From the NCBI GenBank assembly GCA_049976305.1, contig JBMFIM010000009.1, forward strand, positions 1 to 34,434: a stretch of DNA of 34,434 nt, read 5' to 3'. The stretch is from Candidatus Micrarchaeia archaeon (GTDB lineage Archaea; Micrarchaeota; Micrarchaeia; Micrarchaeales; CABMGC01). Position 1 is the first letter of the stretch, and every line of letters begins with the position of its first letter. Shown here in pieces: positions 12,001-15,000 of this stretch. The position numbers were made by a program.

Positions 12001-15000
12001 ACCATTTATGCCTACGAATTCCTCAATTGGCAAGGTCAGAAGTTTTCAAAAAGCAGGCACATAGGAATGAACATTGAAGAAGCACTCAGCCTGCTGCCAG
12101 GAGAATACTGGCGCTTTGTCCTCGCTTCCATACTTCCCGAAACCGCAGACACCGACTTCACCGCAGAGCTCCTTATGCAAGCAGTAAACAATGAGCTTAA
12201 CGACATAGTGGGCAACTTCATACACAGGACTCTAACTCTAATCAAGAACAATTTTGACAGCACTGTGCCGAGCCCTTCAAGCAAGCCAGAAATCGTTGAA
12301 GAGATAAACAAGCATGTTAACTCCTATCTCAGTCTGTTTGACTCCATACAAATCAGAGAAGCACTCCGCTCGGTAATAGAACTTGCTGGATTGGGCAATG
12401 AGTTTCTAAGCAAAAGCGAGCCTTGGAAGAAAATAAAGCAGAACCCTGATGAGGCAGCAGGTATAGTATATGCAAGTGCTATGATCGCCAAGGCAGTTGG
12501 CATATTGCTTTACCCGTTCATGCCGAACAGCAGCCAAAAAGTATGCGACTATTTCTCAGTAGAGCCGAAGCTAGGGCAAATAAGTTTAGACATAGCAGGC
12601 AGGAAGCTTAACTTAGAAAAGCTCGAGCCTCTCTTTTCAAAGATAACAGAAAAGCAGCTCGAACTTTTGAAAGAATTCTCTGGCAAATAAACCTAATTGC
12701 AGATTTTTATAAAAGAAGGTGCAAGGTTATTCTGTGTGGCTGAACAAAGATGTTGAGCTTCTCGAAGGCCTGCCCCTGGTATATGTCAAGTCCTTGAATG
12801 CATTTGTTTGCGCAGACCTTCACCTTGGCTATGAAGGAGTAATGGCCGACAGGGGTATTTTTCTACCAAAGGTTAACCTGGCAAAAATTAAGCAGATTTT
12901 GGAAAAAGCTTATTCTAAAGAAAAAGCAGACACGATAATAGTAGATGGAGATATAAAGAACGAATTCTCCGAAGTCCACCTTGAGGAATTCAACGAATTC
13001 AAGGAGTTTGTGGATTTTACAAGGTCTATGGGCATAAAGCATATTGTAATTATCAAGGGCAACCACGACAACTTCATAGACAAGTATAAAGATCCTTTCA
13101 AGATAGAAATTTACAAGCAGGAGGCACTTTTTGGTGAATATGCAATTTTCCATGGAGAAGATATACCTCATTTAGCAGGAGCTTTCTACATAATGGGGCA
13201 TATACACCCTGCAATAGGCGTTTTCAACAGGGCAGGCAGCAAGGAAAAGCTCAAATGCTTCCTTTACGGCAAGATAAAAAACAAACCTCTACTCATACTT
13301 CCAGCCATGAACTACTACGTCGAAAACGTGGAAGTAAACATAGAGGACATGTTAGAGCTTTCTCCAGTATTTAATAAACTGGTTGATGTTTATGATATGC
13401 ATGCATACTGCATTGGCGTTGGCGAGACTTTGGATTTTGGCATGATAAAAGACCTAGGGTGATCAAATAAAGTTCTTTGTATATACTGATGGGGCTTCAA
13501 GGGGAAATCCTGGCAAAAGTGCATCGGGCTACGCGATATACGACGATAAATTTAATCTTGTAAAAGAGTACGTTTTCTATAACGGGATAGCGACAAATAA
13601 CGTTGCCGAGTATAAAGCTATTATTGCAGCTTTAAAAGAAGCAATAAAGCTGGGCGCTGATGAAATTGTGCTGTTCAGCGACAGCAAGCTCGCGATAAGC
13701 CAGCTTCAAGGTAAATACAAAATAAAATCAGCAAACCTTAAACAGCTTAACAATGAGGCAAAGGGGTTGCTTTTAAGTCTTAAGTCTTATAAGCTGGAGA
13801 ACCCTAGAAGGGAAAATGCCTACATAAGCTCTGTTGACAAAATGCTTAACAGGTTTCTTGATTCTCTCGAGAAAAAAAGTGATGGCTAAACAAAAAGCAT
13901 AATTAAGCATTTGGTTAATTCTTAATCATGGTAGATGTTTCCACCTTATCAAAGGAAGAACTCAGAAAATTGGAGCTTTTCAAAAGAAGGCCGACAGAAG
14001 AGATACTCACAGAAGAGCAGCTTGTAAAGTACATAATGGAAAAGCAACAGTTCAGGCACTACATTGGCTACGAAATATCGGGCTATGTGCACTTGGGCAC
14101 AGGTATAGTAAGCTCGAGCAAGATTGCAGACTTCCAAGAAGCAGGCGCCAAGACCACAATATTTCTTGCGGATTTGCACGCTTGGATAAACAAGAAGCTA
14201 GGCGGGGATCTCGATACTATACGGAAGGTTGCTAAAGGCTATTTCGGGGAGGCAATGAAGGCTTCGCTCAGATGCGTTGGCGGGAATGTCGATGAGACTA
14301 GCGTTGTGCTGGCATCAGAGCTTTATGAAAAGCTCGGCGAGGATTACTTTGAGACTGTCATAAAGATAGCAAACAGCATGACCCTTGCCAGGGCTATGCG
14401 CAGCATAACCATAATGGGAAGAAAGCAAGGAGAAAGCATTAGCCTTTCGCAGCTTGTGTACGTGCCAATGCAGGTTGCAGACATATTTGCCCAGCAAGTA
14501 AACATAGCCCATGCAGGAATGGACCAGAGAAAAGCCCACGTTGTTGCAATAGAGGTTGCCGGATTATTCGATTACAAGCCAGTCGCAATACACCACCATC
14601 TTCTTCTTAGCATGCAGCTTACTGACGAAGACAGGAAGGCAATGCTGAATGCAAAGCAGAATCGCAACACTGAGCAGTTGCAAGACGAGTATTTGGACAT
14701 TAAGATGTCGAAGTCGAAACCTAACACAGCAATTTTTGTACACGACAGCGAGGAGGAGATCAGAAAAAAGATAGGCTCAGCTTACTGCCCTGCAGGCGAG
14801 TTAGAGTTTAACCCTGTGATAGATGTTGTAAGGAATGTGGTTTGGCCTTATCTTACAAAGAAGGGCGAGCCTTTAGTAGTTGAAAACAAGAAGAAAGGTA
14901 CGACTGACGAGTTTGCAAAGCTTGGCGATCTTGAAAAGGCCTTTGCATCTATGCAGGTCCATCCTGCAGACTTGAAGCAGGCAGTTGCCGCGTATTTGAT

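Follow-up and report, generated by a model that had tools for sequence, protein, structure and literature searches.

Probable near-cognate translation starts behind Shine-Dalgarno motifs in Micrarchaeales archaea

The window analysed here is a whole contig (C9, 34,434 nucleotides) of a Micrarchaeales archaeon, G000, whose 723 kb genome is assembled in 34 contigs and is 93.7% complete. It carries the genes for two ribonucleases H, RNase HI and RNase HII (Table 1). Neither gene has a canonical start codon (ATG, GTG or TTG) before its catalytic Asp, and in each a near-cognate codon lies 5 nt past a GGTG motif. The order Micrarchaeales is used here for family groups f1–f3, assigned by kinship labels, and ATH (AUH in mRNA) denotes ATA, ATC and ATT.

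Table 1. Coordinates of the RNase H loci in the window and of three ACG-start genes on other contigs of the same genome
Feature	Position	Strand	Remark
Putative phosphoesterase (TIGR00024), upstream neighbour of RNase HI	12719..13462	+	
In-frame TAG	13455..13457	+	excludes any upstream RNase HI start
Shine-Dalgarno GGTGATC of RNase HI	13458..13464	+	GGTG = 13458-61, ends 5 nt before ATA
ATA start of RNase HI	13467..13469	+	placed by orthologue start alignment
RNase HI, 140 aa (PF00075, PF13456)	13467..13889	+	
PRC-barrel gene (PF05239), upstream neighbour of RNase HII	18963..19217	+	
Shine-Dalgarno core GGTG of RNase HII	19284..19287	+	5 nt before ATC
ATC start of RNase HII	19293..19295	+	register with solved archaeal RNases HII
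RNase HII, 232 aa	19293..19991	+	
ACG-start gene	C1:20014	-	
ACG-start gene	C1:51402	-	
ACG-start gene	C4:24284	-	

The phosphoesterase gene ahead of RNase HI ends in a TGA inside the RNase HI Shine-Dalgarno (SD) motif, 4 nt before the ATA and in a different frame. After the in-frame TAG the sequence reads GGT GAT CAA ATA AAG TTC TTT GTA TAT ACT GAT. The SD can pair over 8 bp (−13.4 kcal/mol) with the 3′ end of the 16S of two relatives, G022 and G003, which reads GATCACCTC; the 16S of G000 is unassembled and the anti-SD was taken from these relatives. An Rfam search of 140 kb of the G022 genome found no 16S in that part. The first canonical codon of RNase HI is GTG 13668, 67 codons past the ATA, and its use would lose 67 residues including YTDGASRGNPG. 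Across 30 loci the start codon was ATG in 20, ATG one codon earlier in two, GTG in four, TTG in one, ATA in two and none in one (G050). The position that an earlier note on this DNA had assigned to the RNase HI start is borne out; 27 of the 30 loci have a canonical codon at the ATA or one codon before it. ATA itself occurs only in G000 and its sister species G004 (DNA identity about 91%; 90–93% across four loci). G050, an unpublished genome, is one row in the 30-locus tallies of RNase HI, LeuRS, AlaRS and g00624, and the conclusions are independent of it.

The SD of RNase HII comprises 4 bp only (−5.4 kcal/mol, with the anti-SD of a relative). Its first canonical codon is GTG 19359, 22 codons past the ATC, and a start there would remove 22 residues including DEAGRG. 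Residue 3 of RNase HII aligns with chain residue 3 of two solved archaeal RNases HII, and the ATC is therefore Met1. Both ATC and ATA had been proposed for this start; the register supports the ATC at 19293 and not the ATA. Neither RNase H, in its long or its short form, had an exact match in a sequence collection (0 of 4). The upstream neighbour is a PRC-barrel family member. PRC-barrel proteins function in haloarchaeal cell division according to the accessible text of 10.1101/2023.03.28.534520; that role is known from these relatives, not from this protein.

The earlier note had left the RNase HII start unchecked in order relatives. When the check was run, Met1 proved to be ATA, ATC or ATT in 30 of 40 Micrarchaeales genomes. 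In the best 30 loci codon 0 was ATC (9), ATA (9), ATT (6), ATG (5) or GTG (1), and the next ten members had ATH in six, ATG in three and a TTG at codon −1 in one. Sixteen of the best 30 loci have no canonical codon from the upstream stop to the catalytic Asp. The upstream stop is at codon −1 in G013, G018 and G045, which excludes upstream starts there. Where GGTG lies 6 nt upstream, the GTG of the SD itself is in frame at codon −3 (G022, G016, G021, G006, G011 and G017) and is a possible RNase HII start in those six loci. Among 30 genomes of other Micrarchaeia orders, with G089 scored by eye, 26 had a canonical codon, three had ATA and one was ambiguous. The three (G064, G125 and G143, of one family) carry the ATA behind GAGGTGAT without a canonical codon. 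On metagenome contigs, codon 0 was ATH for 22 of the 25 close homologues; seven of these have a canonical codon within four codons, and some probably come from organisms already represented among the genomes. Distant metagenome homologues had canonical starts in 37 of 37 scored and ATH in none, with 18 of 56 loci lacking a scorable motif. RNase HII is the deepest case, with AUH kept across an order.

A PRC-barrel gene lies directly upstream of RNase HII in all 30 loci. The gap from its stop to RNase HII is 8–36 nt in 22 of 24 ATH loci, and 48–825 nt in 6 of 6 ATG/GTG loci (three independent lineages; rough P 0.0015). In metagenome ATH loci the gap is at most 44 nt in 18 of 20 that were measurable; the other two have 88 and 141 nt, and one further ATH locus lacks a PRC gene within 487 nt. 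Tight coupling is therefore not required.

Near-cognate starts were assigned to ten G000 genes, a lower bound, against 538–642 genes tested (<2%). Besides RNase HI and RNase HII these are a Trbp111-like gene (ATA; PF01588), g00624 (ATA), LeuRS (ACG), AlaRS (ACG), an ATPase-H-like gene (CTG; TIGR02926, below cut-off) and three ACG genes without an assigned name (Table 1). ACG is the commonest near-cognate type both in G000 (5 of 10) and in G003. GGTG ends exactly 5 nt before eight of the ten codons, and the remaining two have AGTG (LeuRS) and GTTG (C4:24284). Sequence inspection confirmed all seven codons reported earlier, with two corrections: the GGTG given as 4–7 nt away is at exactly 5 nt, and LeuRS does not have it. 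A start at the first canonical codon would lose 32 residues in Trbp111, 25 in g00624, 77 in AlaRS, 30 in LeuRS and 87 in the ATPase-H-like protein, and just 12–14 in C1:20014 and C4:24284. Nine of the ten codons are common to G004, which upholds for these genes the earlier judgement that sequencing error is unlikely. That judgement does not extend to AlaRS: G004 has ATG there, and the ACG may be a single-base error or a young allele.

The persistence of these codons differs from gene to gene. The C1:51402 product starts with ACG in G000, G004, G001, G005 and G002, that is, in five of six species of the genus at 62–92% protein identity, with a stop at codon −1 in G005; G003 and G024 have ATG. 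ATA follows GGTG by 5 nt at Trbp111 in G000, G004, G001, G002 and G003, extending that case beyond G000 as had been claimed, and G005 has an ATG nearby. LeuRS has ACG in G000 and G004, ATA without any canonical codon in G010, and ATA/ATT with an ATG 6–7 codons upstream in G006 and G011. Starts of g00624 in 30 loci were ATG in 12, GTG/TTG in eight, ATA in eight, ACG in one and CTG in one, so that 10 of 30 are near-cognate; GGTG lies 5–7 nt before nine of these ten, as against 1 of 12 ATG starts. The ESM Atlas entry for g00624 begins at residue 26.

Screening of relatives covered 620 of about 700 kb of G003, 852 of 853 kb of G022, 277 of 952 kb of G044 and 396 of 1179 kb of G125, the last a member of an order other than Micrarchaeales. 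Seven of 14 flagged G000 rows and several G003 and G022 rows were discarded by eye (rRNA, tRNA, shadow-frame or split-gene). The candidate starts in G003 are ACG for uS10, the 2-oxoacid oxidoreductase beta subunit, aMBF1 and GGGP synthase, and CTG for TFE. Those in G022 are ATA at eS6, ACG at a histone, ATC at a GNAT gene and CTG at one further gene; one G022 gene is split across two frames, so cases seen only in this genome may include assembly errors. Single genes were flagged in G044 (NMD3 with ATA; 1 of 219) and G125 (a TIGR00296 gene with ACG behind GAGGTGATTTC; 1 of 149). ACG and CTG are thus found in other species and genera, and not only in this species and its nearest relative, where they had been seen earlier. 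The uS10 start is canonical in 30 of 30 loci compared, 29 of these from other orders. On this sequence comparison, near-cognate starts appear on about 1–2% of genes in this symbiotic archaeon and its relatives, and most cases are probably gene-by-gene switches from ATG to a near-cognate codon that persist in one to several species. The near-cognate state spans species or genera at RNase HII, g00624 and C1:51402.

Spacing to the SD was compared with that of ordinary genes. The reference set comprised 414 starts in G000 whose position matches that of an orthologue: 316 ATG, 52 TTG and 46 GTG. GGTG ends 5 nt upstream in 50 of these, 6 nt upstream in 10, and at any other distance in six or fewer. 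The same 5-nt peak is present in G003, G022, G044 and G125, and canonical starts of the lineage follow GGTG(A) in a narrow register with a mode of 5 nt and, less often, 6–7 nt. Where the position is fixed by an orthologue, GGTG at 5 nt precedes 6 of 8 near-cognate starts versus 34 of 316 ATG starts (Fisher P 6e-5). A codon-blind scan of four genomes took GGTG+5 sites at least eight codons upstream of the first canonical codon. The next codon was ACG, ATA, ATC, ATT or CTG at 17 of 60 such sites versus 4.06 expected (Poisson P 1.4e-6), the 17 including false starts, about four of them well upstream of the aligned region; AAG or AGG came next in two versus 2.8 expected. Internal near-cognate codons in G000 have GGTG at 5 nt ahead of 65 out of 16469. 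Seven of 608 coding-like ORFs in G000 combine GGTG at 5 or 6 nt with a near-cognate codon far upstream of the first canonical one, and all seven are among the truncated genes. For five genes at 30 loci each, GGTG lies 5–7 nt before 33 of 47 near-cognate, 14 of 75 ATG and 11 of 24 GTG/TTG starts; kin are not independent in this tally, and some LeuRS and AlaRS starts are mis-picked (near-cognate rows with GGTG: 0 of 6 and 1 of 6, respectively). In five genes the stretches dropped by gene callers differ from G004 by 48 synonymous and 8 non-synonymous changes (pN/pS 0.043), and against G001 pN/pS is 0.18. These stretches are under purifying selection.

Such codons could enter metagenome-assembled genomes through mistakes in sequencing or assembly, or as transient deleterious alleles, and ACG and ATA are indeed single transitions from ATG. 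The AlaRS discrepancy with G004 and the split gene of G022 fit this explanation. However, errors would give no SD enrichment, nor would they leave nine of ten codons common to two species at about 91% DNA identity, the C1:51402 ACG in five species or ATH at RNase HII in 30 of 40 genomes. Error is refuted except for AlaRS and the single-genome cases, and is scarcely credible as a general account. It is also very unlikely that the true start is a downstream or SD-embedded canonical codon, the near-cognate codon being an ordinary residue or untranslated, or that the genes are pseudogenes. The in-frame GTG at codon −3 in six RNase HII loci, a GTG at +4 in two g00624 loci and the small loss in C1:20014 and C4:24284 would allow for such starts. 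Yet a downstream start would cost both RNases H their first catalytic Asp and AlaRS 77 residues, and the dropped stretches have a pN/pS of 0.04; G000 contains a single full match for LeuRS and a single one for AlaRS, and the codon −1 stops bar upstream RNase HII starts in three genomes.

The codons might instead acquire the meaning of AUG, by mRNA editing (C-to-U for ACG) or by reassignment of AUA to Met. C-to-U editing of ACG starts is known from plant organelles. The prevalence of ACG in G000 would suit editing, and reassignment gains from a tRNA-Ile(UAU) in the genome and from TiaS, found in none of 151 genomes. In contrast, internal ATA aligns with Ile in 79% and with Met in 0.7% (n=2560; Met 0.7–1.3% in three genomes), and internal ACG with Thr in 84% and Met in 0.6% (n=361). 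The tRNA-Ile(UAU) has G1-C72 and lacks the initiator's three G-C anticodon-stem pairs, and one editing reaction cannot account for ATA, ATC, ATT, ACG and CTG together. We consider editing or reassignment very improbable. Fusion with the upstream gene by frameshift or read-through is the least probable of these explanations. In G000 the PRC-barrel gene ends in the reading frame of RNase HII and its stop is the only one between them, and the RNase HI SD overlaps the stop of its upstream gene. Against fusion, the PRC stop lies in frames 0, 1 and 2 in 7, 9 and 14 of 30 loci, a frame relation that is not conserved; LeuRS in G000 follows a tRNA-Cys gene; and a fused protein would need no conservation of ATN at the Met1 position.

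Near-cognate initiation on core genes, as proposed in the earlier note, is the sole reading to survive these tests, and it reaches further than was noted then, RNase HII being the widest case. We put the probability at about 0.85 that these are real, lineage-wide near-cognate translation starts, at which the normal initiator tRNA pairs despite one mismatch, in a register set by the SD duplex. In archaeal initiation, according to the accessible parts of PMC6237735, PMC7531240 and PMC4705826, the SD duplex pre-positions the complex and aIF1 is the proofreader. By extension, the SD:anti-SD duplex would set the position and register of the 30S subunit, and ordinary Met-tRNAi(CAU) would pair with codons one mismatch from AUG (AUH, ACG and CUG, not AAG or AGG). 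Proofreading by aIF1 would let a fraction of these complexes pass, giving a normal Met-started protein at a reduced rate. A yield below that of AUG is expected from bacteria, and a good SD may make up for the weak codon. The text of PMC10666635 cites 0.3% for an ATT start in E. coli. Near-cognate codons on uS10, eS6 and histone in single genomes imply that the yield is higher here or that those cases are errors.

G000 has a canonical initiator tRNA, with a CAU anticodon, A1-U72 and three G-C pairs. The factors aIF1, aIF1A and aIF2 alpha and beta were detected; aIF2 beta and aIF1A were not found in G003 (92% complete). aIF1 was found in 59 of 61 genomes, and its loop 1 reads K/R-F-x-K. Loss of the loop-1 Gly was rejected as a cause: G064, G125 and G143 keep the Gly yet have ATA at RNase HII, and G066 and G062 lack it yet have ATG. 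Loss of the aIF1 zinc knuckle in G000, G003 and G004 is no special feature, as P. abyssi aIF1 is also described without zinc (PMC6237735, accessible text). An initiator-like tRNA-Ile(UAU) was likewise set aside, since this tRNA lacks the initiator marks. Among aIF1, aIF1A, aIF2 alpha and aIF2 beta, no change explaining the tolerance was found.

Real starts could still be merely tolerated, through drift in a small symbiont genome where any AUN works after a good SD, and this reading has a chance not far short of even. The RNase HII third base changes 16 times on the 30-row tree, no fewer than with shuffled labels (mean 17), and most near-cognate starts are limited to one or two species. With 30 ATH and 8 ATG, the ATN codons at the RNase HII start are compatible with an unconstrained third base (P 0.71) and so give no support for selection against ATG. 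On the other side, GTG/TTG is almost absent from the RNase HII start (2 of 40; P 0.002 versus a six-codon uniform model, in which kin are not independent), starts are canonical in the distant homologues and in most other-order genomes, and the PRC gene lies far from RNase HII in the ATG lineages. The scarcity of GTG/TTG and the link to short PRC gaps would favour selection at RNase HII. The most likely way for this to work would be that the weak codon takes its ribosome from the nearby PRC-barrel gene and so holds the nuclease low, with about even odds against tolerance. A fuller joint reading is offered tentatively and is on balance doubtful: starts would be chosen mainly by the SD as a ruler, AUH, ACG and CUG being sufficient, and the RNase HII AUH would be an old, selected, order-wide rheostat that makes the nuclease level depend on how stringent initiation is and on how far the upstream PRC-barrel gene, of the cell-division type, is translated. 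If the SD-ruler part is true, such starts would yield enough protein even for ribosomal proteins, histone and tRNA synthetases.

Bacterial parallels are known, and are compared here from the accessible text of the papers cited. Starts at AUU/AUA behind an SD occur in infC and in S. aureus ccpN, cvfC1 and citZ, at about 10% of AUG; ccpN reaches as much as 30% in rich medium (PMC13009471). As in infC and ccpN, the near-cognate codon is positioned by the SD and conserved across taxa (PMC13009471). As there, no canonical codon yields an intact protein, and the codon stands at the lineage's SD spacing and at the orthologue start position. Taxonomic conservation is found for RNase HII, g00624 and C1:51402, is lacking for AlaRS, and extends for RNase HI to G000 and G004 only. 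In contrast to the bacterial cases, the machinery here is that of aIF1/aIF2, ACG and CUG are apparently also used, and the starts are assigned by sequence comparison. About ten genes per small genome are involved, compared with four sites in S. aureus, and the SD, extended in that species, often appears to be just GGTG here (8 bp at RNase HI and 4 bp at RNase HII, with a relative's anti-SD). Unlike infC with its autoregulation, the gene of the proofreading factor aIF1 itself starts with ATG (30 of 30 loci). Deinococcus dnaA (ATC) and rpsL (CTG) starts were shown by N-terminal proteomics (PMC2830850) and likewise concern core information-processing genes, with lineage-conserved ATC/CTG codons overlooked by annotation; those cases are bacterial and proteomics-proven, and ACG goes unmentioned in the accessible text.

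The lineage otherwise resembles standard SD-led archaeal initiation, with GGAGGUGAU-type SD pairing, a Met-tRNAi with A1-U72 and aIF1/1A/2. The same sources (PMC7531240, PMC4705826 and PMC6237735), in their accessible parts, give only AUG, GUG and UUG as archaeal start codons and report that S. solfataricus aIF1 discriminates against AUU. GGUG is 6 nt from the start in the P. abyssi model mRNA, versus a mode of 5 here. In the largely open-access literature searched, the sole archaeal near-cognate use found in print was CTG at 5% of unannotated small ORFs in M. mazei Ribo-seq (PMC11456600, accessible text). Searches of mostly open-access main texts turned up neither Micrarchaeota with such starts nor archaeal genes starting at ACG, and the accessible parts of PMC8211752 and 10.64898/2026.09.13.751334 contained nothing on near-cognate starts. 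NCBI translation table 11 lists ATT, ATC, ATA and CTG as starts, without ACG.

If the starts are real, five further codons would begin core genes beyond the three given for archaea, with ACG outside the prokaryotic start table. These genes could serve as natural mRNAs for studying the trade-off between aIF1/aIF2 proofreading and SD spacing, which bears on the origin of eukaryotic start-site stringency. DPANN annotation would truncate or miss such genes, with essential protein ends cut by gene finders, and truncated calls can yield false gene loss or dead enzymes in reduced genomes. The screen also flagged rows at G003 C8:38828, G003 C10:18434 and G022 813553. A plasmid search returned a single distant match.

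A tRNA-Ile gene with the anticodon UAU is present in the genome under study, and the TiaS family (PF08489) matched none of the 151 genomes of the phylum while giving matches in four archaeal controls. AUA is therefore probably read without agmatidine. Two tRNA-Asn(GUU) genes that differ from each other were also seen in this small genome.

The gene g00624, which starts with ATA, is present in 57 of 61 relatives and uses six different start codons. It has no family match in Pfam or NCBIfam, and the genes for aIF2 beta and aIF1A lie about 1 kb away. Its C-terminal end reads GLGMIFG and may resemble that of the ribosomal stalk protein of archaea. 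The initiation proofreading factor aIF1 lacks its four-cysteine zinc knuckle in the genome under study and in the relatives G003 and G004, with the knuckle kept in the other 27 of 30 rows. The C-terminal domain of aIF2 alpha (PF07541) scores just 30–41 bits in five genomes, against a cut-off of 22.8.

Coordinates of the features discussed (G000, genome under study; G003 and G022, relatives)
Feature	Location	Positions	Strand
tRNA-Ile(UAU)	G000 C2	37828-37903	
tRNA-Asn(GUU), copy 1	window	16357-16429	-
tRNA-Asn(GUU), copy 2	G000 C8	13850-13923	
g00624	G000 C13	16123-16590	-
aIF1	G000 C1	7765-7968	-
aIF2 alpha, C-terminal domain	G000 C4	45267-45575	-
16S 3' end copies (three, with substitutions)	G003 C8	33964-34021	
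	G003 C9	14112-14552	
	G003 C17	915-967	
Trbp111-like gene, split across two frames	G022 C1	541220-541600	
Ku and ATP-dependent ligase, adjacent	window	429-2244	-
PolX/PHP gene	window	16998-18746	-
UbiD-family gene, then fused aconitase X (swivel and large domain)	window	8181-10989	+

Irregular loci were found in two relatives. The 16S match on contig C9 of G003 is broken by about 480 nt, and the two-frame split of the Trbp111-like gene in G022 is a frameshift or an assembly indel.

Within the window, Ku, the ATP-dependent ligase and PolX/PHP make up an end-joining repair set, in an archaeal genome of 0.7 Mb. The pairing of a UbiD-family gene with aconitase X is known from the modified archaeal mevalonate pathway.
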